64,000 bases of DNA, taken from an uncultured Gammaproteobacteria bacterium. GTDB lineage: Bacteria > Patescibacteriota > Microgenomatia > Levybacterales > UBA12049. The notes beneath the pieces were generated by a model. That model was not told the DNA's origin and searched no databases. It saw only the letters and a list, made by a program, of their open reading frames with translations. The DNA is taken from assembly GCA_965230895.1 (NCBI GenBank), contig OZ246394.1:980668-1044667 (forward strand), given 5' to 3'. Positions 52,736 through 64,000 of the stretch are shown piece after piece (the first letter of the stretch is position 1; every line of letters begins with the position of its first letter). Position numbers and translations under genes: made by a program.

Positions 52736-55700
52736 TTATGGAGCAACTTCGTTGGAGGTAATCGACTGTATACGAACTAACTCTGGTAGATTAACGACAA
52801 AATCGAGCCGCTGAACAATTTGAAGGGAAGGATTATCAAGATTATTACCGCATAGATCTCTATTATTCTGAAGCTTTCCACCTGATTGTGCTGCATTAAC
52901 GATGAGTACACCTGCAATGTTTAAGCGTAGATCTGCACAGGTGTTTGTACTTTGCATAATAAATGATTTATCTGTACTAAAGATTCCTGCAAGGTTTGTA
53001 GTACTGGAGCTTGGGGCAGACCCAACGGTTGGAGGGACGATAATATTTCCGGAGACGGAGAAAACGACTGTGGAACCGACAGGAGTAACAATATTCCCTT
53101 TAATAGTCAGGTTGCCATTAATAATAAACACATAATGTTGATTCGCCGGGAAAGTAAATCCATTCAAGGAGACGTCACCTGTTGCAGTATACGTTCCTTG
53201 TGGTAGCGTAACTGGCAACGTGCAATTCGAAAGAGTACAAATCGTTGATAGATTTGTTGGAGTCGTATCAGAGGCTTTTACTTTCGCACTGAGATAATCA
53301 TACGATGAGAAAATACCTCCGCTATTTGATGGCACATAAACTTCAGGATATGAATAACCTCCAACAACTTGATTTGTGCTCGATGCTTGACCTACTCCAA
53401 ATTCAGCCTGAGAATCACCAGTAAAGATTACGCCAGGTGTACTACAAGTTGGATTTGAGGTCATCATTGTTTTACCTTCTGGGACTGGATTATCAATACC
53501 ATTATCCATACGTAACTCTCCGCATTGTACCTGCATCCACGGATTGAAGTTTGTGAGATAGTAATTTAAGTTCGAAATATCACCCGGAAGCGTTGTTACA
53601 GTACCGGTCCTACTTTCTTCATTTCCAAATGTATTCATATTATTTAATCCTGAAGCATATTCAGCTTCGATCCAATCTGCAGAACGAGCAACTCTCGCCA
53701 TACGTACTTCGTCAATTTTTCCATCAAAGCACCATGCATAATCAGCCGAGCACGCACCATTGATATCAGCTTGTCCAATTGATGAAGCCTGTGTACCATA
53801 GTCACGTAAAGTCCCGGTATAAGTATTCCCATTGCGTAAAGCTCCATCTACATAGAGGTTCTCCCGCTTTGTTGCCGTATCAACGGTCTCAGCAACGTGG
53901 CGCCAGGTTCCAGAAGTATAAGGAGAAGCGCTTGCACCATAAGCAGTACCTGAAGTGTTATAAACAGTTGAAAACCAGTTACTTCCACTCGCAAAACGAA
54001 GTCCAGTATGCTGCCCTCTTTTTCCTACAACGAAATAATCGTTAAGTCCTGAGCTATTTGGATTTGTATCGGGATTTGCCCAAGCTGTATACGTGAAATT
54101 AGCTTCTGTCAAATCCTGCAGGCTTGAGGAATTAGGAATTGTTATTTTATCGTTTCCGGATGTTCCTCCGTCAAAGTTTTGAGCATTTCCAATTCTTCCA
54201 GCATTTGTACTTAAAGTGAAACCGCTTGCTGTTCCATTATTTGCATTCGAGGTTGAATCAATAACAGTTGTTCCAGACGTTTCAGCCATATGGTAAACGG
54301 CGGCATACCCATTGCTCCAGACATTAGCCTTATTTTGTCCATCAGCTGCATTAGAATTATTGTAGTACATCCAAATATAGTCAGCGTTTGAATTTGCATC
54401 AATTTGAGGAACTTTAACCCAAAGATCCGACGTTCCGTTTTCATCCCATTTTTCAATTTCATGTGCCAATAACGTCACTCCATCAGCGTCTACAAAGCGA
54501 ACATCCTGACCTAGGTTCTGAGTTTTTGCGTAATCCACATTTGTGCTATTCAACGAAACTCTCAAGGGGAAATTGACTAAGCTTTCTGCTGATGCTGTGT
54601 TATTGATAGTTATCTTTTTTCGGGATAACCATTTCGGATCCCACCAGTCTATTGTAGGTTCTTCAGCTGAGATACCATCACTCGTGTAAACTTCAATTCC
54701 AGAAAGATTAAAATCCCCTCCTGTTTGGAAAAAGGACAGACTTCCATCTGAAACTGTTACATGATATGGTCCAAGCTTTTTCCAGGTTCCTGCGTTACCA
54801 CTTTGCAAATTAGACTCCTTTGCTACCCCTTCAAAACCAATATTATATGTGGTCGATGTAGTATCTTCCCAAGTATAAACATATACTGAATACTCTCCAT
54901 TGGTTATGGGAATTTCTGCGTTCAGTTGGATATTGCCGCCTCTCCATATTGAAGATCGTAGCATTTGTGCCTTATTTGCACTAACTGAAGGACTTAACGT
55001 AATTCCTTGGTTCTGGAAATTTGTACCATTTGTTGTAATTCCTGCTGCAGATTGAGCTTGAAATGTTGTACCATCTACGTCTAATTGTGGTCCGTTAAAG
55101 TTCACTGCTTTTATAAGAGTATTCGCTGGCAGCGTTGAACTTGGTGTTCCTTCATACAATTGCACATCGTCGATCCAAACTGTTCCAGTTGCAGTTGCAA
55201 CTTGGAATCCTACAAGAGCATTATCTGTTGTTTCTGTTGGCTGGAATGTATATGTATATTGCTGCCAACTACTCGTAAGCGATGCAGTCTTGCGAGTGTA
55301 AAGAGTATACGGATCATTCCCGTTTTGGACAATCGCATCCATAGTCCTGTTTCCCGAGGCCTTTGCCCAAAAGCTTAATGTATAGGTTTTGCCTGCAGAA
55401 ACTGGGACGCCGTAGGTTGCAAGTTCTAAATCTTGAAGATTGCTCGTCGTCGTAGTAACGACTATTTGCGCAGAATATGCTCCATGTGTGCTTGTTGCAT
55501 TTGTAGCTGTAAATGTACCATTTGCGCTGCCTTTTTTTTGTAAGAACCAATCCGTGGTCCCCAATTCATAACTCCAATTCTGGACAAGATTCTGCCGACT
55601 GCCTGGAGTAGGAGTCACCGTAGCAGCATCGATCAATTCCATATCATCAACATAGAAACTGTTCCCAGAGACAGCTGAATCCTGGACGATATAATAATCA

Positions 55701-56185
55701 ATACTATCAACCGCTGAAGTAACTGTTACCGTAGCAGTAATTTTTTGCCAATCAGTAGTCAGATTGACGATAGGACCAGAAGTCATCGTTTTGTTACTAC
55801 CTGTCCATTGCCTCAAGATGATATGAATCGGTTTCCCAACAGCAGTTGTTGATCGAACCCAAGCTGTTGCGGTATATGTTTTCCCTACCGGAGGATTGGT
55901 AATTGGATCTTGGTTATCATCTATTGTGTAGTAGTCTCCAACTGATCTTGTTACCAGACAAGATGCAGACCCACTATGTGCGACATTTGTCACCCGTGTT
56001 AACGTTCCCTGATACGAATTCCATGAAGAAGTATTTGTTTCGCACCCGGGATTTGGGATCAGATTGGCATAAGCAATATTATGAATCGAACTTAATGAAA
56101 AAATTACCCCAGAAATAATAAGCATAAAAGCTAGTACTGTGAAGATGATTGAATGATGTTTTTTTGAAAGAAATATGCTTTTCAT
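52736..56185 (-). CDS. Large secreted surface protein: two CBM_4_9-like carbohydrate-binding modules, DUF2341 and LamG-like domains
   Basis: Start taken at the ATG at 56185 (MKSIFLSKKHHSIIFTVLAFMLI..., a signal anchor) rather than the TTG at 56236. Two repeats with NPGCE/NWSYE...W...VDDxxL CBM-like patterns, a DUF2341-like region (WWDPKWLSRKKITINN) and a concanavalin/LamG-like region. Ends 2-53 nt upstream of nusA. Confidence 0.6.
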   Translation of the reverse strand: MKSIFLSKKHHSIIFTVLAFMLIISGVIFSLSSIHNIAYANLIPNPGCETNTSSWNSYQGTLTRVTNVAHSGSASCLVTRSVGDYYTIDDNQDPITNPPVGKTYTATAWVRSTTAVGKPIHIILRQWTGSNKTMTSGPIVNLTTDWQKITATVTVTSAVDSIDYYIVQDSAVSGNSFYVDDMELIDAATVTPTPGSRQNLVQNWSYELGTTDWFLQKKGSANGTFTATNATSTHGAYSAQIVVTTTTSNLQDLELATYGVPVSAGKTYTLSFWAKASGNRTMDAIVQNGNDPYTLYTRKTASLTSSWQQYTYTFQPTETTDNALVGFQVATATGTVWIDDVQLYEGTPSSTLPANTLIKAVNFNGPQLDVDGTTFQAQSAAGITTNGTNFQNQGITLSPSVSANKAQMLRSSIWRGGNIQLNAEIPITNGEYSVYVYTWEDTTSTTYNIGFEGVAKESNLQSGNAGTWKKLGPYHVTVSDGSLSFFQTGGDFNLSGIEVYTSDGISAEEPTIDWWDPKWLSRKKITINNTASAESLVNFPLRVSLNSTNVDYAKTQNLGQDVRFVDADGVTLLAHEIEKWDENGTSDLWVKVPQIDANSNADYIWMYYNNSNAADGQNKANVWSNGYAAVYHMAETSGTTVIDSTSNANNGTASGFTLSTNAGRIGNAQNFDGGTSGNDKITIPNSSSLQDLTEANFTYTAWANPDTNPNSSGLNDYFVVGKRGQHTGLRFASGSNWFSTVYNTSGTAYGASASPYTSGTWRHVAETVDTATKRENLYVDGALRNGNTYTGTLRDYGTQASSIGQADINGACSADYAWCFDGKIDEVRMARVARSADWIEAEYASGLNNMNTFGNEESRTGTVTTLPGDISNLNYYLTNFNPWMQVQCGELRMDNGIDNPVPEGKTMMTSNPTCSTPGVIFTGDSQAEFGVGQASSTNQVVGGYSYPEVYVPSNSGGIFSSYDYLSAKVKASDTTPTNLSTICTLSNCTLPVTLPQGTYTATGDVSLNGFTFPANQHYVFIINGNLTIKGNIVTPVGSTVVFSVSGNIIVPPTVGSAPSSSTTNLAGIFSTDKSFIMQSTNTCADLRLNIAGVLIVNAAQSGGKLQNNRDLCGNNLDNPSLQIVQRLDFVVNLPELVRIQSITSNEVAP

Positions 56186-56186
56186 A

Positions 56187-59132
56187 TTATTCACACTTCG
56201 CTCCAGTTGCGCCATTTGTATTACATTCTGGGCCAAGTGTCACTTGAAATGATGGAGGAGGTCCATTGAGCGGATATGTCATCCTGTATCCAGTCGTCAG
56301 AGGAGAAACAAGGGAAACAGTATACGTTCCAGGAGGCAAAGCTCCACTAGAATACGATCCGTTTGAAGTTTCAACAGTTTTCCTCGTCGGTCCTGAGAAG
56401 AAAATAAGCATAGGATCAGTAATAAGTGTGTCTGGTGGCGCGAGATTAAGATCCTTATCAAAGTCTTTAACAATATTTCCTGAGATAGTAAATCCTGTCG
56501 CATTCCCAAAATCGATATTATCGTAGGAATTTCCAGATTCGACACTTAAATTATATGCTTTTGTATCAGTTGTCTGATACCAACCCGCCTGCACAACTTC
56601 TGTGAATGTAAAATCCTTCGTACATAATCCTGTAAATGAGAACTGGCCTGCTGAATTCGTCTTGGCGGTGATAGGAACGTCCAAATCTTCTGCTGAAGCC
56701 TGAACTGTCCAGTTATACAAGGGAAGGTCGCCTCCATCGTATACTTTATTTGTATTCTTGTCATTGAAGATCATACCGTTAACGACACCGGTTCCAATAT
56801 CTTCTGCAATACTTTGATAAATTGATTCAAGTGTTGAAGTAGATGGAGAATTGTAGAATCTTCCACCGTTCGTATCAGCAAGCTGTTGCATAAAGATAGG
56901 ATCAAACGAGCCGGATCCTTGTCCAATACCAATAACTTGATAGATAATGTTTTGTGCATTTACACCGTTAATTGTGGCGGTCATAGCAGCATTTTCAGCA
57001 GCATCAATAGAGACATTTCCCCCATTTGAACCAATTATTTGATTTGTAGCACCATCTGTCATAACAATGACAACTTTTTGAGCATTTCTTGTAGATCTAC
57101 TAAGCTCTCCATTCCCTAAAACAATTCCGCACTCTACACATGTACCGCCTCCATTATCTGGGACTGCACTAATAGCGTTTTTAATAGCGGATGTATTCGT
57201 AGTAAGTGGTTGAGAAACACGGGTATTCACATCATTTGGATAATTATTACTCCCTGAGAAAACAGTCAATCCATATTGTGCATTTTTGACATGAGAAGAG
57301 ACAATATCGATGAAGCTACTTGCTGCCCGCTTTGCGGCAAGCATTTTTGTCATACCTGTTGTTGGATCTGTTTCTTGCATACTTCCAGAATCATCAAATA
57401 CAAGCATAATATCGACACCATTTGCACTACATGATCCTCCGACCTTTGTAGTCGTACTTTCGACAATACCAAAGTTAACCGTCTTATCTGTCGAAAGCGG
57501 AAAATTAAGCGAATTTGCAGTAGTACTTCGATAACCGGTTGGCGTATCAACCCGAATTGTATAGTCACCGCTCGCCTGATCAGCAAAGAGATAGCCTCCA
57601 CTAACATCTGTTGTTTTTGTAACAGGTGTCGTCTTCGTCAATGTAACTGTTGCTCCCTGATAAAGCGGTTCACTCGGATCTAATAACCCATTCTTATTTA
57701 AATCTATAAATACTTTTCCGGTAACGTTATAAAGTGTTACCATTCCGAATTCAACTGTTTTCGCAGGCGTTCCTCCAGCAGTACCTGCAGTAGAAGGAGG
57801 AGCAAAGGTAATTGTCTGAGTGTTTGTTGTTGTACTCTTTTTCTTGGCAGGAAGTGTATATGTGATTGTATATGTTCCTGCAAAAAGATTTGGGAAAGAG
57901 AAATTTCCGGAGTTATCTGTTACAGCAGAACCTGTAGCAGTACCCGAGAGTACAATTGTTACCCCAGGTTCCACAGAGTCGCCATTACCTCGTTTTCCAT
58001 CTTCATTTTTATCTTCAAAAATCGCTCCTGAGATAGTAAAAAGAGGTACAATTCCGAAATTGAGTGTTCTATTTGGCCCTACTGTAAAATTCGCTTCCGA
58101 TGGCGTTGATGCCTGATAATTAGCGGGCAAAGGGAATTCCGCGTTATAGGTACCAGCAAAAAGCTGTGCTGTATAGCTCCCATCTGAGGCACTTCGCGCA
58201 GTTACGGTAGTAGGACCAGTAAATGTAATTGTGCCTCCAGTGTAATTACCATCACCATTATCGTCGACACTGTTTCTGTTATTGTCTAAAAATATCATTC
58301 CGGAAACTGTGTAATATTGTGCAACTCCAAAGCTTACCGACTGATTCGAGTTTAGCGTCACAGATCTTGGATTTGTATTTGTAGCCTTATATCCCCCTGG
58401 AACAGCGATTGTCACAGTATAGGTTCCAGCAAACAATGCCGGGAAAGTGAAATCTCCATTTTCATCGGTTGTTGTACTTGTTGATGTTGGACCTGACACA
58501 GAAACAGTTATGCCACTATTTCCTGATTCACCAGCATCCTTTGTTGTATCAATATCTGTATCTGTAAATACATTTCCTGAAAGAGTATGGACAAAACCAA
58601 TACCAAAATTAACAGTTTTATTGGATGTTAGAGAAACAGATTGTGGATTTGTCGAAGTATTTTTATAACCATTTGGGACAGTAATCGTAACTGTATAATC
58701 ACCCCTCGGAAGAGTCACAGAATATCCTCCCGTTAAACTTGTCGTTGTTGTTGTAGACGAGGCTCCAGTAATTGTAACAGTAACGCCACTCACCCCAGCT
58801 TCAAGTGTATCTTTATTTCCATTTGCATTTGCATCAACATAAATAGTTCCTGAAAGAACTGCCGTTGGAATAGGTGTAGGAGTCGGAGTGGATGTCGGAG
58901 GAGCAGGAGTTGGAGTGCTTGATGGTGTCGGAGATGCAACTACCTGTGCAATCAAATCACCAAGTACTCCTTGCTGCTTTTTTTCTTGCTGAGGCATAAT
59001 TAACTGCTCAATTTGTTGCAGTTTTTCTGGGTAAAAGATACTTGCAGCACTTGTAATAATTCCTACAAAAACAATCGCGACAAAAACTGTATTGATAATT
59101 TTAAAAACATTTAATCGAGGTTTTTTTAACAT
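56187..59132 (-). CDS. Large surface adhesin-like protein: N-terminal TM anchor, Pro/Thr linker, multiple SdrD-B/CnaB-type Ig-like repeats and a von Willebrand factor A domain
   Basis: 981 aa. Repeated about 100-aa units of the form GxxxxDxNxNGxxD...GYxxTxxN...NFG; vWA with a MIDAS-like DDSGSM...TDG; N-terminal TM helix FVAIVFVGIITSAASIF. Confidence 0.65.
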   Translation of the reverse strand: MLKKPRLNVFKIINTVFVAIVFVGIITSAASIFYPEKLQQIEQLIMPQQEKKQQGVLGDLIAQVVASPTPSSTPTPAPPTSTPTPTPIPTAVLSGTIYVDANANGNKDTLEAGVSGVTVTITGASSTTTTTSLTGGYSVTLPRGDYTVTITVPNGYKNTSTNPQSVSLTSNKTVNFGIGFVHTLSGNVFTDTDIDTTKDAGESGNSGITVSVSGPTSTSTTTDENGDFTFPALFAGTYTVTIAVPGGYKATNTNPRSVTLNSNQSVSFGVAQYYTVSGMIFLDNNRNSVDDNGDGNYTGGTITFTGPTTVTARSASDGSYTAQLFAGTYNAEFPLPANYQASTPSEANFTVGPNRTLNFGIVPLFTISGAIFEDKNEDGKRGNGDSVEPGVTIVLSGTATGSAVTDNSGNFSFPNLFAGTYTITYTLPAKKKSTTTNTQTITFAPPSTAGTAGGTPAKTVEFGMVTLYNVTGKVFIDLNKNGLLDPSEPLYQGATVTLTKTTPVTKTTDVSGGYLFADQASGDYTIRVDTPTGYRSTTANSLNFPLSTDKTVNFGIVESTTTKVGGSCSANGVDIMLVFDDSGSMQETDPTTGMTKMLAAKRAASSFIDIVSSHVKNAQYGLTVFSGSNNYPNDVNTRVSQPLTTNTSAIKNAISAVPDNGGGTCVECGIVLGNGELSRSTRNAQKVVIVMTDGATNQIIGSNGGNVSIDAAENAAMTATINGVNAQNIIYQVIGIGQGSGSFDPIFMQQLADTNGGRFYNSPSTSTLESIYQSIAEDIGTGVVNGMIFNDKNTNKVYDGGDLPLYNWTVQASAEDLDVPITAKTNSAGQFSFTGLCTKDFTFTEVVQAGWYQTTDTKAYNLSVESGNSYDNIDFGNATGFTISGNIVKDFDKDLNLAPPDTLITDPMLIFFSGPTRKTVETSNGSYSSGALPPGTYTVSLVSPLTTGYRMTYPLNGPPPSFQVTLGPECNTNGATGAKCE

Positions 59133-59226: not shown

Positions 59227-61635
59227 TCAGGAGACATCAGCATGAAGTGCGCCTGTACCATCAATAGTAAAGTTAACTTTTTTACCACGATCTATTTCCT
59301 TCGTCAAACGTTTCTGCGCAATAATATCTTCAACTGTATCTTGTAAATATCGTCGTAAAGGACGTGCCCCAAAGTCTTTATCAAAGCCTTCTTGCGTAAT
59401 CTTTTCAATGACGGCGTCGTCAAAAGTTAATGTAATATCCTGTGCCGCCAATGACTTTGTTAATTGAGCTAATAATAACTTTGTTACAGCAACGACTTGC
59501 TCTGGACCAAGCGGATTAAAGGTCACGACATCATCAAAACGATTGAGTAGCTCTGGTTTGAAAATACCTTTTGTTTGTAACTGCTCCAGCAACCTTTGCT
59601 CAAATTTCTTATCAATCGCAGTACCTTTCTCAACTTCTTCACGAATAAATTCTGAACCGGCATTTGACGTAGCGATAATAATTGCATTGCGGAATGATAC
59701 TGTTGTTCCTTTATTATCAGTCAATCGACCATCATCGAGAACTTGCAAGAAAAGATTATGGATTGCAGGATTTGCTTTTTCAAATTCATCGAGCAAAATA
59801 AGTGATGCTGGATTATCATGAATTTTATCAGTCAGTTGGCCTCGGTCTTCTCCCTCGCCAGGTGCAGCTCCCAATAATCGCTTTAATCCATTCTCGTCAG
59901 TATATTCACTCATATCCAAACGAATCATGTGCTGCTCTCCTCCAAAGTAAAATTGTGCTAAAGCTTTCGCAGTCTCTGTCTTACCGACACCCGTCGGACC
60001 TAAAAAGAGAAAAGAAATAGGACGTTCACTGGTCGTCATACCAGAGCGGATACGTCGCATTGCTTCACTAATCGCTTTCACCGCGGTATCCTGGGCAATA
60101 ACTCGCTCATGCAGCTTGTCTTCGAGATGTAAGAGCAGATTAATTTCTTGTCCTGTTGGGAGTGCAATTGAAACATGGCTTGTTGCTTCGACTTTTTTAA
60201 CAACATCTTGTTCGAGCACCATCTTACGATGTGACTTTTCAAATGATGGACGTTCTTTTTCCTGAGAAACAGAATTAGCCACAGTTTCAAGCAAAGAGAC
60301 TGCACTTCCTGGTAAAACTTGATCCTGAAAAAAACGATTAGCAAGTTCAACAGCACTCAAAACTGCACGATAACTGATAATTACTCCATAGGTATTTTCT
60401 ATTTTAGCTGCTTCTCCTAATACCATCTGGATCGCATTAGCAGGCTCAACCGGTTTTAGTTCAACAACGGCAAAGGCCTCTTTTAAAGGATTTTTTTCCA
60501 TATACGTTTTGTAACTTCCAGTTGTCATTGTGGCGACCATGGGAATATTTCCACTTTTTAGGTATGGCAAAAGCGCACCTGAAAGATCCAGTCCATATGA
60601 TGATGCACCTAATATATTTTGAAAATCAGGGATATAGACAAATACATCATTTGCATGAGAGATCTCGGCAATAATATTTTGTAGTCGTAATTCAAGGTCA
60701 TTACGATTTCCAGCACCAGCTGTTAGCGCTCCGACCAGTAATTGGAAAATTCGCTTATGATTAAGATAGCCGCCTAGATTTCCAGTGAAACTATGATACG
60801 CAAGCGCTCGGACTAAGTTCTCTTTTCCTGATCCGATATCGCCGACGATAAGCACATTATTATTTTCAATTTTCGTAAGCCCTTCCAAAACCATTTTAAA
60901 TTCTGACTCTCGCCCACCAATATGTGGTTCTGTTCTTAAAGCGTAGTTTGTAAATAATGCAGTATATTTTTTTGTTTCAGGAGTCCAACCTGAGGTAAGC
61001 GCTTCACCAATTCCTCCACCTGCAAAATTAATTCGTACCGGTTTTGGATTTTCTTCATCTGGTAAGTCGAGACGAACCCAATAGAGGATATTGTATAAGT
61101 CTGTTATCTTGAGCTGTTTGGCAAATAATATCTTTGTATCCTTTTCAATTAAGAAGAGATATGCCACAAGAACATCCAAGGTGGTTACATACTTTGCTTT
61201 AAATGTCTGAGCTGTTTGAAATGCACTTTGTGCAAGTAATTTTTTATCAACTTCCTGCACTACAAGATCTTTACTGGTGATATTAGCTTTTTGCAGGACA
61301 AGTTTCACTTGAGGGTAAGTCATAAGGCGCTTAATTAATGACGTTGCGTTAGGTTCTGTTATAAATCCATACAATGCAGCCATAGTAAATGATTCATACA
61401 TATTCTCTTCTTTATTTTTGGAGACTTCAATTTTGGGAACTGCACGGCTTATCTTGTAATGAAAGAATACCTCAAACATTACAAACAGATTAAAAAGAAA
61501 AACACTAAAGTTGGCTGGAATATCATTTGATACTTGATACAGTATTAAAGACAATAGCATCGCACAAGCGACAAGTCTGATGCTTCGCACGAGTGCGGTT
61601 CTATAAAATCGGTATAGTCGGACAGATAATTCCAT
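59227..61635 (-). CDS. Membrane-anchored Hsp100/Clp-family AAA+ protein with degenerate first nucleotide-binding domain
   Basis: 802 aa. Two N-terminal hydrophobic helices. D1 Walker A GDIGSGKEN (consensus GxPGVGKT) and Walker B VFVYIPDF (DE lost). D2 is intact (GPTGVGKTE, ILLDEFEKA, GARPLRR). Confidence 0.7.
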   Translation of the reverse strand: MELSVRLYRFYRTALVRSIRLVACAMLLSLILYQVSNDIPANFSVFLFNLFVMFEVFFHYKISRAVPKIEVSKNKEENMYESFTMAALYGFITEPNATSLIKRLMTYPQVKLVLQKANITSKDLVVQEVDKKLLAQSAFQTAQTFKAKYVTTLDVLVAYLFLIEKDTKILFAKQLKITDLYNILYWVRLDLPDEENPKPVRINFAGGGIGEALTSGWTPETKKYTALFTNYALRTEPHIGGRESEFKMVLEGLTKIENNNVLIVGDIGSGKENLVRALAYHSFTGNLGGYLNHKRIFQLLVGALTAGAGNRNDLELRLQNIIAEISHANDVFVYIPDFQNILGASSYGLDLSGALLPYLKSGNIPMVATMTTGSYKTYMEKNPLKEAFAVVELKPVEPANAIQMVLGEAAKIENTYGVIISYRAVLSAVELANRFFQDQVLPGSAVSLLETVANSVSQEKERPSFEKSHRKMVLEQDVVKKVEATSHVSIALPTGQEINLLLHLEDKLHERVIAQDTAVKAISEAMRRIRSGMTTSERPISFLFLGPTGVGKTETAKALAQFYFGGEQHMIRLDMSEYTDENGLKRLLGAAPGEGEDRGQLTDKIHDNPASLILLDEFEKANPAIHNLFLQVLDDGRLTDNKGTTVSFRNAIIIATSNAGSEFIREEVEKGTAIDKKFEQRLLEQLQTKGIFKPELLNRFDDVVTFNPLGPEQVVAVTKLLLAQLTKSLAAQDITLTFDDAVIEKITQEGFDKDFGARPLRRYLQDTVEDIIAQKRLTKEIDRGKKVNFTIDGTGALHADVS

Positions 61636-62020: not shown

Positions 62021-62129
62021 ATTCCCAACACAAAGAATCCGAACGAATTCGGTCCTTATCTTAAGTATATGCAGTCGAACTGATAATTACAATGCAAGGA
62101 AACACGAGTGGGACAGAGAAGTTAAGAAA

Positions 62130-64000
62130 TTATTCTATTTCTTCGTGGCGGGATTGTGGCGCGACATAATTTACTGGCCGGAAGTTTGATGGAATTCCAG
62201 AGTAATTGTATGCTGACTGAGATGCCATTGCTGCACCATTGGACGCTACACCGTTTGCAGGTGGAGGCGTACTATCTACAGCACCATTTGGAAGACTTGT
62301 TGGAGCTGGAGTCTGGAAAACAGGTCCGGTATTCTCCGCTGGTGCATTTGTTGGCGCTTGCGGTGTAGTTGGTGCTGCTGCAGGATTATTAACAGCAGCT
62401 CCACCTGGTGCAGGAGCAACTGGTTCAGGCGCTGTTGGAGTATTTGCCGCTTGTCCATCAGTTGCTTGTGTCGGATTCTGATTAGGAGCCTGTGGAGCGC
62501 CACCTGGAACATTTTGTGGTTGATTAGCGTCTTGTCCCTCTGAAGGTTTTGACTCAGCGCTTTCAGCCGGCTTCACATCACTTGAATCAGATGATTGTCC
62601 GCCTTGTTCTGCTGAACCTTGATCATCAGGAGCAATATTCTTAACTCCTGCTGCTTCAAGTACCATAATTGCAATTTCATCCTTTTGTTGAGCTGCAGCA
62701 ACCATATCAGCAACCATCTTTTCTAATTCTTCATATTTTATAGTATCTTTGACACTAAGTACTGCTGCTGCTAATGCGTTACCTTTTTGACTTGCTTCAT
62801 TAAGCTTCGTTTGAACAGCAGTATACTTCTCTTTGTCTGCTGGTAATTCAGCTGTAACTGGATTATTAATTAACAGTAACGTTTTCTTAAAGTTACGCAG
62901 TGGTTGATGAGCCAGCTCTTCTTCAATTATCTTTAATATCTCAGTTGCTAATGGATCACCAGATTCTTTTGCAGCTTGCAACTCTTTTTGAATTCCAGCA
63001 ATGTCATCATCAGATGTGATATCAGTAATCGCAAGAATCTTTGTAGCTAAAGGATTACCTTCAGTCTTTGCTTTTTGCATCTTCTCGTAGACAACATTAA
63101 ATTGATCTTTAACTTCAGGGTCAGCGAGATACAATGGATTAATCAATTGTTTTAATACATTCTTAAACTTGGTAACAGGCTCTTCTTCATGTGCTGCCTC
63201 TGCTTCTTCGACAAGCTCACTATTTACTGCCGCGAGAATATCCTCAGCAAGGCTATCTTCATTTTCCTTTGCAACCTTCAATTCTGCCATCAAATCTTCA
63301 ATAGCTGCATCGGTTGTTGTATCGTTCACAGCAAGAATCTTTGCTGCCAAAGCATTTCCACGCTGATTTTCCATAGTCAGTTTCTCATGAAGTTCCATGA
63401 AACGAACCTTCTTATTACTATCTTTAATATTATCTGGATGAATGATCTCAAGAAGGATTTGCTTAAGCTTCAATGAGGCTTGGATCTGCTGTGCCATACT
63501 ATTTGCAAGTTCAATAATTTCGAAAGCTAGATTGTCACCTTTAGCTTTTGCTTCTTCAATTTGCTTACGTAAGGTTTGGATTTGCTTCAAATCTGTTGAA
63601 ACTGTTACTTCAAGGATGCTGCTTGCCATTGCATTCTTTTCAGTACGAGCTTGCGTTAATTTGTCGTGGAGGACAATAAAGCGTGATTTATCTGTAGTAC
63701 TTGTTATATTGTCTGGATTTGCCAAGTTAATCAAAACTGTTCGGAACTGCTCATCTGTAAGTGGAGCGACTGTTGCACCCGCACCACCCTTATTGAAGAC
63801 AAACTCATTGGTATTATCACTGTAATCGATCACAATTGTATCTCCAGCAACAAACTTCTTTGAAATAATTGCTAACGCAATGGGATTTTCAATAGCAGTT
63901 TGAACGAGTCTTCGGAGTGGTCGAGCACCATAGACTGGGTCATAACCATCTTTTGCCAATTGATTAACAGCTTTTTCAGTGATTTGAAGGTTAAAGCCTT
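62130..64000 (-). CDS. ClpB/ClpC-like AAA+ chaperone (5' end outside the window) with a ~540-aa C-terminal extension of four ~95-aa repeats plus a Pro/Ala/Gln/Asn-rich tail
   Basis: The frame is open to the window edge. The region near 63900-64000 encodes the D2 small domain (GYDPVYGARPLRRLVQTAIENP). Then come four degenerate repeats sharing F..LH.KL...T.GN.LA..IL.V.D.T.D..I..L..EL..AK..GD.LA.EIL, then a low-complexity tail. Confidence 0.7.
   Translation of the reverse strand, partial: GFNLQITEKAVNQLAKDGYDPVYGARPLRRLVQTAIENPIALAIISKKFVAGDTIVIDYSDNTNEFVFNKGGAGATVAPLTDEQFRTVLINLANPDNITSTTDKSRFIVLHDKLTQARTEKNAMASSILEVTVSTDLKQIQTLRKQIEEAKAKGDNLAFEIIELANSMAQQIQASLKLKQILLEIIHPDNIKDSNKKVRFMELHEKLTMENQRGNALAAKILAVNDTTTDAAIEDLMAELKVAKENEDSLAEDILAAVNSELVEEAEAAHEEEPVTKFKNVLKQLINPLYLADPEVKDQFNVVYEKMQKAKTEGNPLATKILAITDITSDDDIAGIQKELQAAKESGDPLATEILKIIEEELAHQPLRNFKKTLLLINNPVTAELPADKEKYTAVQTKLNEASQKGNALAAAVLSVKDTIKYEELEKMVADMVAAAQQKDEIAIMVLEAAGVKNIAPDDQGSAEQGGQSSDSSDVKPAESAESKPSEGQDANQPQNVPGGAPQAPNQNPTQATDGQAANTPTAPEPVAPAPGGAAVNNPAAAPTTPQAPTNAPAENTGPVFQTPAPTSLPNGAVDSTPPPANGVASNGAAMASQSAYNYSGIPSNFRPVNYVAPQSRHEEIE

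Follow-up and report, generated by a model that had tools for sequence, protein, structure and literature searches.

A 64,000-nucleotide stretch of contig OZ246394.1 (assembly GCA_965230895.1, positions 980,668 to 1,044,667; hereafter the window), deposited under the name of an uncultured Gammaproteobacteria bacterium and placed by GTDB within the Patescibacteriota (Levybacterales), codes for an 802-amino acid (aa) paralog of the Clp/Hsp100 ATPases that we refer to as TM-Clp (59227-61635, minus strand). TM-Clp combines a predicted N-terminal membrane hairpin with a first AAA+ ring (D1) that is degenerate and a second ring (D2) that retains its ATPase motifs and has lost the tyrosine of its pore loop. 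An initial annotation of this gene had described a membrane-tethered Hsp100 homolog with a pseudo-D1; this description is supported and holds true for an entire clade. The loss of the D1 arginine fingers, the D1 pore tyrosine, the M-domain, and the ClpP loop were not part of that annotation, nor was a partner gene located directly upstream. On balance, we lean toward the interpretation that TM-Clp and the small membrane protein encoded upstream form a two-part, membrane-embedded Clp/Hsp100-type hexamer that would be driven by D2, would not thread substrates, and would resemble the Torsins in its logic.

Membrane Hairpin and AAA+ Rings of TM-Clp

Hydropathy on the Kyte-Doolittle scale exceeds 1.6 in just two 19-residue segments of TM-Clp (residues ~14-32 and ~39-57), both of which are N-terminal. 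The structure predicted with AlphaFold2 (AF2; mean predicted local distance difference test score, or pLDDT, of 80.8 with a 60-sequence alignment as input) has helices at both positions with pLDDT values of 85-90 (Table 1). The hydrophobic N-terminal helices recognized in the initial annotation are therefore borne out by hydropathy, by AF2, and by conservation from residue 1 (see below). A run of Arg residues (R6, R9, R12, R17, and R20) is found ahead of helix 1, and further basic residues (Lys/Arg) come after helix 2, so that the hairpin is positively flanked at either end. The positive-inside rule predicts an N-in/C-in orientation from this, with a cytoplasmic ATPase. When genomes were scanned for the sequence pattern, with each GTDB species represented by one genome, 69 loci were recovered, and the tallies reported hereafter are based on 60 full-length sequences from the Levyibacteria. 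Helix 2 bears the conserved polar residues N49, E55, and H59; E55 is invariant in 60 close homologs and is Glu in 50 of the 60 species-level sequences.

The motifs of both rings were read by alignment to ClpC of Bacillus subtilis, and all motif coordinates were confirmed by translation. No Pfam AAA match was detected above threshold for D1, and its motifs are degenerate when aligned to those of ClpC. As initially annotated, the Walker A Lys is retained and the Thr/Ser that follows is replaced, in this case by Glu. Among the Levyibacteria, the Lys position is occupied by K (53 sequences) or R (7), and the residue after it is E in 45 sequences, S in 8, D in 3, T in 3, and K in 1. The claim that Walker B had lost its acidic pair holds in part: the Mg-binding Asp is replaced by Pro in TM-Clp, as it is in 58/60 sequences, but the position of the catalytic Glu is still acidic, being Asp in TM-Clp and E (32) or D (23) in most of the others. 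The D1 pore Tyr position is occupied by N, D, T, S, E, Q, or A and is aromatic in none of the 60 sequences, and the arginine-finger site likewise deviates from the canonical motif (Table 1). The replacement of GKT by GKE and of the Walker B Asp by Pro, together with the lack of Arg fingers and of the pore Tyr, identify D1 as a pseudo-ATPase, as judged from its motifs.

The domain that precedes D1 had been described as a Clp N-like region, and this resemblance is weak. Clp_N (PF02861) yields no Pfam match in TM-Clp, even at an E value of 0.1, and only a ClpA profile and the alignment to ClpA from the PDB extend into this all-helical domain, reaching back to residue ~99-133 (the second half of the domain). 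PF02861 is matched by some distant members of the membrane-anchored clade described below.

The description of D2 as fully canonical stands for its ATPase motifs but not for its pore loop. Walker A, Walker B, sensor-1 (TSN in TM-Clp), the Arg finger, and sensor-2 are conserved in 58-60 of the 60 sequences, with the Arg finger R699 conserved in 59. However, the ClpC D2 pore loop GSPPGYVGYDEGGQLT aligns with GAAPGE-GED-RGQLT in TM-Clp, such that the substrate-gripping Tyr is absent and a conserved acidic, glycine-rich loop (PGEGEDRG) stands where GYVGY is found in a canonical D2. The Tyr position is E in 31 sequences, Q in 10, and K in 4, and is deleted in 11. A subclade of the Levyibacteria (L047-L052, L055, L058, L062, and L073) has a wholly deleted D2 pore loop (LES------DSGSFLNQ). 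The same subclade has His in place of Glu at position 55 of the membrane helix and GKS in the D1 P-loop, and these changes are correlated.

We considered whether these features could be products of misannotation or decay, with translation truly starting at Met79 to yield a soluble protein and with random changes in D1. In keeping with this, some database entries for relatives of TM-Clp start at an internal Met (737-750 aa), and no strong Shine-Dalgarno sequence precedes the ATG of TM-Clp. These shorter entries represent alternative start calls. Homologs of TM-Clp form >120 clusters with 60-92% identity, and the hairpin is kept from residue 1 in >90 full-length homologs (nearly all of 802 aa) and in the 69 species-level loci. 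Protein-level conservation extends over residues 1-78 in every full-length homolog, with the pattern YRTAL.RSIRL ... FNLFVM.EVFFHYKISR, in which R20, E55, F58, and P67 are invariant. When codons 1-70 are compared to those of the 92%-identical ortholog in the closest relative (L005), 29 codons differ by synonymous changes only and 11 by non-synonymous changes. This excess of synonymous differences indicates that the region is translated and that the start codon is not an artifact. In addition, the GKE and IP[DE]FQN substitutions in D1 are conserved across 60 species. The conservation of the D1 and D2 substitutions themselves indicates that they represent a selected state rather than decay. Collectively, the conservation from residue 1 and the ratio of synonymous to non-synonymous differences rule out a start at Met79, so the hydrophobic N-terminus is not removed by a corrected start codon. 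The open reading frame (ORF) is real and under purifying selection, and we give essentially no credence to an origin of its features in misannotation or pseudogene decay, which is refuted by these data.

Table 1. Coordinates of TM-Clp, its domains and motifs, and neighboring genes in the window.
Feature	Coordinates	Strand	Evidence or comment
TM-Clp gene (membrane-anchored Clp/Hsp100 paralog, 802 aa)	59227..61635	-	ORF, Pfam, homologs, AF2
Predicted membrane helix 1 (aa 14-36)	61528..61596	-	Hydropathy peak 2.07; AF2 helix 14-36; kept family-wide
Predicted membrane helix 2 (aa 42-59)	61459..61512	-	Hydropathy 1.7; AF2 helix 42-59
All-helical N-domain (aa 76-190), strongly diverged, Clp_N-like	61066..61410	-	AF2 helices
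Putative D1 pseudo-ATPase module (aa 236-470)	60226..60930	-	E value of 1e-23 against ClpC D1; 1e-38 with family profile
D1 Walker A variant GDIGSGKE (ClpC GEPGVGKT; Thr/Ser to Glu, Lys kept)	60820..60843	-	Alignment and translation
D1 pore loop TAGAGNRNDL (canonical AGTKYRGEF), no aromatic	60694..60723	-	Alignment to ClpC
D1 Walker B remnant VFVYIPD	60625..60645	-	ClpC FIDE corresponds to YIPD
D1 arginine-finger site LKEAFA (canonical LERRFQ)	60469..60486	-	Alignment to ClpC
D2 AAA+ module (aa 500-705)	59521..60138	-	Pfam AAA_2 3.9e-49 (aa 540-702)
D2 Walker A GPTGVGKT	59977-60000	-	Within D2 module
D2 pore loop GAAPGEGEDRGQ, without Tyr, in place of canonical GxPPGYVGYEEGGQ	59836..59871	-	Alignment and translation
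D2 Walker B LILLDE	59785-59802	-	Within D2 module
D2 Arg finger R699 in FKPELLNRFD	59533-59562	-	Within D2 module
D2 small (C-terminal) domain	59272..59511	-	Pfam ClpB_D2-small 6.5e-21 (aa 709-788)
Sensor-2 GARPLRR	59350-59370	-	R758 kept in 58/60 sequences
Partner membrane protein gene, 125 aa	61643..62020	-	Directly upstream of TM-Clp
Soluble two-ring Clp, 3' part, with long, repeat-containing C-terminal extension	62130..64000	-	ClpB_D2-small match
Surface-protein gene, 981 aa, six SdrD_B/CarboxypepD_reg repeats and VWA	56187-59132	-	
Surface-protein gene, 1166 aa, CBM_4_9, DUF2341, LamG	52736-56236	-	

The Upstream Partner and the Membrane-Anchored Clade

The stop codon of the partner gene is positioned 7 nucleotides before the ATG of TM-Clp in the window. 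A partner gene was identified directly upstream and on the same strand in all 62 of the Levyibacteria loci with upstream DNA (62/62), often overlapping the start of TM-Clp. The two genes are co-transcribed and probably translationally coupled. Members of the partner family are hydrophobic and typically ~108 aa in length, and the partner belongs to no Pfam family and has no match in PADLOC. Its invariant residues include W31, N47, a K68-x-E-Y-R72 loop, K87, and E105, and when modeled alone by AF2 (pLDDT 87.5) it is predicted to comprise helices at residues 20-53, 56-61, and 73-124.

Homologs of the partner are also encoded directly upstream of TM-Clp in two more distant loci, L077 (E value of 4e-27) and L078 (about 1e-8 to 1e-10). 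The partner gene of L077 (L077:4621-5017, plus strand) was not called in the source annotation, which has a 66-aa ORF on the reverse strand instead; the stop-to-stop ORF matches the partner profile. Small membrane partners such as this one are likely under-annotated. In longer relatives of TM-Clp (~855 aa; P0354, P0259, P0254, P0255, P0269, P0300, and P0312), of which the P0354 family is from candidate division WWE3, homology to the partner spans the first ~100 residues (hhalign probability of 96.9%, E value of 1.9e-10, 99 columns), indicating that these proteins are fusions. An in-frame fusion of the partner to TM-Clp was also detected in one Levyibacteria genome (L065); it looks genuine and is a single case. 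An apparent fusion in L053 was rejected as an artifact of masked bases (X in the translation). Separate genes in one lineage and a single fused gene in another constitute a classic type of evidence that two proteins form one complex.

By homology, TM-Clp is clearly a Clp/Hsp100 protein. Pfam matches comprise AAA_lid_9 (residues 399-468, 3.9e-9), AAA_2 (540-702), and ClpB_D2-small (709-788), which corresponds to the class I architecture of two tandem AAA+ modules with AAA_lid_9 after D1 and with an AAA_2 D2 followed by ClpB_D2-small, as is found in ClpC, ClpB, and ClpA. The best sequence and fold matches are ClpC of B. subtilis and ClpB of T. thermophilus (E value of ~1e-104; Foldseek E value of 1e-49), and ClpC, ClpB, and ClpA are the top Foldseek matches of the model. 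The search with the whole model returned only chains of these three proteins and nothing that was informative for the membrane part or the N-domain. The nearest NCBIfam families are ClpB (TIGR03346; 435.8 bits versus a cut-off of 1232.1), ClpA (TIGR02639; 395.7 versus 993.15), and ClpV/TssH (TIGR03345; 349.5 versus 884.95), such that TM-Clp scores at approximately one third of each equivalog cut-off. No type VI secretion genes were found in the neighborhoods inspected.

Despite this homology, TM-Clp fails to display the defining functional features of ClpA, ClpB, ClpC, and ClpV. The M-domain is absent: the alignments of D1 and D2 abut, residues 404-448 of ClpC have no counterpart, and residues 457-500 contain no coiled coil in the AF2 model. 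The ClpP-docking [LIV]G[FL] loop is absent as well, with a six-residue gap at ClpC KYVGFN (VGF) and no such tripeptide in the loop region of the family. An M41 protease domain is likewise absent, with no Peptidase_M41 match in Pfam. Finally, TM-Clp has neither the aromatic pore-1 loops (KYR in D1 and GYVG in D2, replaced by GNR and GEGED) nor the catalytic motifs in both rings that characterize a working unfoldase.

We searched 1.84 billion representative proteins with a profile built from the N-terminal 470 residues. Among the matches listed, 106 are at least 700 aa in length, and 80 of these have an N-terminal hydrophobic helix. A G[YFW]xG D2 pore loop was identified in none of these 80 proteins (0/80) versus 19 of the 26 without such a helix. 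When the hydropathy threshold was lowered slightly, 81 representatives were classified as membrane-anchored and 25 as soluble. The RR fingers of D1 are present in 0/81 membrane-anchored and in 25/25 soluble representatives, and only 14 of the 81 have both a canonical Walker A and a canonical Walker B in D1. Conversely, Walker A, Walker B, and the Arg finger of D2 are intact in 80 of the 81, the remaining one being gapped at the finger. In a neighbor-joining tree (no bootstrap) of a sample chosen by the profile, built from D1 and D2 columns only with the membrane region excluded, the membrane-anchored sequences form one 81-tip clade with all 19 canonical sequences outside.

Taxonomically named members of this clade are assigned to the 'Patescibacteria group' or WWE3, save for one record labeled Nitrososphaerota. 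Among the 69 loci from the pattern scan, those that are informatively labeled belong to Candidatus Levyibacteriota and the others have placeholder or doubtful labels. Many contigs that encode the module are labeled as uncultured Gammaproteobacteria, Saccharimonadales, Acidiferrales, Limnocylindrales, Methylomirabilota, Sulfotelmatobacter, Lysobacterales, or Woesearchaeota; such odd labels on public records of metagenome-assembled genomes are probably placeholders or wrong. The membrane-anchored Clp type is widespread in the Patescibacteria (candidate phyla radiation, CPR). Membrane anchoring and the loss of the pore aromatics and the D1 fingers likely took place at the base of the clade, followed by decay of the D1 Walker motifs and splitting of the membrane module into a separate gene, which likely occurred later in sublineages including the Levyibacteria. 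We found no description of a membrane-anchored or transmembrane Clp/Hsp100 in CPR/Patescibacteria in the open-access full-text literature.

Gene Neighborhood

Across loci, the neighbors of TM-Clp are housekeeping genes, including an addA-like helicase, nusA-infB-rpsO-pnp, the hrcA-grpE-dnaK-dnaJ operon, and ribosomal protein operons. Two large surface-protein genes, whose ORFs overlap by 50 nucleotides, are located between TM-Clp and nusA in this genome only; the pair has the appearance of an insertion of adhesin-like genes that is specific to this lineage. These downstream surface proteins (SdrD_B/VWA and LamG/CBM) were considered as clients or partners of TM-Clp and were rejected, since they are absent from the loci of relatives, where nusA-infB follows directly.

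On the other side of the module, the window contains the 3' part of a gene coding for a soluble two-ring Clp. A soluble Clp of this type is encoded within 6 kb upstream (<=6 kb) in 26/49 loci. It is thus a frequent neighbor, and its membership in the TM-Clp system is uncertain. The full ortholog in L005 (L005:1189-5503) is 1438 aa in length and has both GYVGY and ERRFQ. The same ortholog has a P/Q/A-rich, low-complexity N-terminus and His in place of the D1 pore Tyr (AGASHRGEF), and it lacks an M-domain and a ClpP loop. The C-terminal extension of the soluble Clp comprises four ~95-aa helical repeats ('GN.LA..IL' twice each), which Pfam does not recognize, followed by a P/A/Q-rich tail.

Between the genes for the soluble Clp and the partner, a short, GC-containing hairpin (CCGAA-TTCG-TTCGG) is present at 62039-62052 and a promoter-like sequence (TTGTAA-17-TATACT) at 62092-62064. 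A scan for promoters and terminators around the module, these two included, revealed no more sites than were found in shuffled sequence. No controlling inverted repeat of chaperone expression (CIRCE) was seen in the intergenic sequence, which was read by eye with no pattern search.

Mode of Action and Alternative Readings

Hsp100/Clp proteins are textbook soluble threading machines. TM-Clp differs from ClpC, ClpB, and ClpA in being membrane-anchored, in having a dead D1, and in lacking aromatic pore loops and D1 Arg fingers. It further lacks the M-domain, and hence a docking site for Hsp70 or MecA, as well as the ClpP loop, while its N-domain is unrecognizable as Clp_N and it has an obligatory small membrane partner. 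An additional two-ring Clp class, ClpI of the Actinomycetota, has been defined bioinformatically, and some of its members lack the ClpP motif (PMC10149685); unlike TM-Clp, ClpI is soluble and has intact ATPase modules with unfolding motifs and an M-domain (PMC10149685). FtsH, Msp1, and Bcs1 are held at a membrane by an N-terminal anchor, with their AAA+ ring on its cytoplasmic or matrix side, as the hairpin would do for TM-Clp. However, each of these proteins has only one AAA module, which is of the classic clade; FtsH also contains an M41 protease domain, and aromatic pore loops are used by FtsH and Msp1. In NSF (D2) and Pex1/Pex6 (D1), a degenerate ring serves assembly while the other ring works; in contrast to TM-Clp, these proteins belong to the classic AAA clade, are soluble, and have aromatic pore loops in the active ring.

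Torsins are AAA+ proteins related to Clp D2 that are membrane-associated by an N-terminal hydrophobic segment and that lack aromatic pore loops (PMC5425593). They depend on a membrane-protein cofactor (LAP1/LULL1) and are thought not to thread substrates (PMC5425593). TM-Clp likewise lacks aromatic pore loops and has an N-terminal hydrophobic segment. Torsin itself is eukaryotic and luminal, with a single AAA+ module whose Arg finger is supplied by the cofactor, whereas TM-Clp retains R699 and a second (dead) ring, its ATPase must be cytoplasmic, and its partner is a small, helical membrane protein without an AAA-like fold. We regard the likeness to Torsin as functional, with no evidence of direct descent, and the way in which TM-Clp would work is closer to that of membrane AAA+ proteins of the Torsin or Bcs1 type than to that of ClpB or ClpC.

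Based on these comparisons, we propose that the hairpin lies in the cytoplasmic membrane, which would position the N-domain and the D1 ring against the inner membrane face. D1 would then act as a static assembly scaffold that perhaps still binds nucleotide, comparable to D2 of NSF and D1 of Pex1/Pex6, and D2 would be the sole motor of a hexameric double ring. Such a machine would not thread polypeptides processively and would operate without Hsp70 and without ClpP. Instead, the ATP cycle of D2 would power conformational changes in the membrane module or in a client in the membrane or envelope. Since D2 lacks the pore-loop tyrosine, TM-Clp is probably not a tethered disaggregase or unfoldase.

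Several considerations weigh against this proposal. The membrane helices of TM-Clp are predicted from hydropathy and AF2, and the last 52 residues of the partner are modeled as one continuous helix, which makes the number of spans and the side on which the KNEYR loop is located ambiguous. The assembly into a hexamer, the contact between TM-Clp and the partner, and the topology are likewise predicted. TM-Clp differs from Torsin in having its own D2 Arg finger and two rings, the conserved D2 loop may retain a grip on substrates of a special kind (e.g., basic ones), and a few clade members keep F or M at the D2 Tyr position. Moreover, a canonical Clp is encoded beside half of the loci, and the two may function cooperatively.

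In the main rival reading, TM-Clp would be a threading unfoldase or dislocase that is tethered to the membrane, in the manner of FtsH, Msp1, or Cdc48-Derlin, and that extracts membrane or secretory proteins through its pore. Here, E55 and residues D94 and E105 of the partner would form a hydrophilic groove, and the extracted chains would perhaps be passed to the neighboring canonical Clp. The membrane anchor with D1 facing the bilayer, the conserved charged residues within the membrane helices of both subunits, and the fully active-type motifs of D2 are all consistent with a dislocase, as are the canonical Clp adjacent in the 26 loci and the dnaK operon adjacent in L002. However, both pore-1 loops lack the aromatic residue that is needed for threading by known Hsp100 proteins, FtsH, Msp1, and Cdc48, the D2 loop is wholly deleted in one subclade of the Levyibacteria, and TM-Clp has no protease domain and no ClpP loop. 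A dislocase would account for the buried acidic residues but not for the loss of both pore tyrosines, and we consider it rather improbable. The shared gene order of canonical clp, small gene, and TM-clp in the window and in the 26 loci could also indicate that TM-Clp anchors or regulates the neighboring soluble Clp, localizing or gating it at the membrane through mixed or stacked rings with the pseudo-D1 as a docking surface. Degenerate AAA+ subunits that control active paralogs are known (Torsin with LAP1; PMC5425593). Nevertheless, the invariant catalytic motifs of D2 suggest that an ATPase activity of TM-Clp itself is under selection, and no canonical Clp is encoded nearby in approximately half of the Levyibacteria loci or in the more distant loci inspected (L074, L076, L077, and L078), which makes this role unlikely.

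A function in anti-phage defense of the Dodola (DolB) or PDC-M37 type is far less probable still. It is suggested by PADLOC matches of DolB (2.9e-36) and PDC-M37B (4.8e-38) to residues ~480-750. These matches cover the generic ClpB-D2 module alone, with that of DolB restricted to residues 500-662, and the partner is without any such match. Furthermore, TM-Clp is present in 69 species-level Levyibacteria genomes, and its syntenic position is stable across nearly all genomes of the lineage. In the loci examined, its neighbors are nusA-infB, dnaK, or ribosomal genes, and it does not lie in variable islands.

The housekeeping neighborhood and the presence of TM-Clp in many Patescibacteria lineages point to a core role in maintenance of the membrane or envelope, as far as a cellular role can be read from sequence. 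The specialized role at the envelope that was proposed in the initial annotation is plausible. We tentatively raise the further possibility, which we hold with limited confidence, that the clade represents an unrecognized, Patescibacteria-wide class of Hsp100. In this case, a Torsin-like, non-threading machine with one active ring would drive a module of hairpin and small subunit with a buried acidic ring, and would serve envelope remodeling in wall-attached, lipid-auxotrophic episymbionts rather than protein quality control. If true, examples of its job would be the gating or assembly of an envelope conduit or the handling of host-derived lipids or proteins.

Relatives of TM-Clp are named 'ATP-dependent Clp protease ATP-binding subunit ClpA/ClpC' or 'AAA family ATPase' in databases, and the former annotation is misleading because these proteins lack a ClpP-docking loop. 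The finding also bears on the Patescibacteria, a very large and mostly uncultivated radiation in which TM-Clp would constitute a conserved membrane machine; the biology of their envelopes and their dependence on hosts are poorly understood. More generally, the TM-Clp clade offers a natural test of what an Hsp100 ring does without threading, a question that is also unsettled for the Torsins, a protein family with links to human disease.

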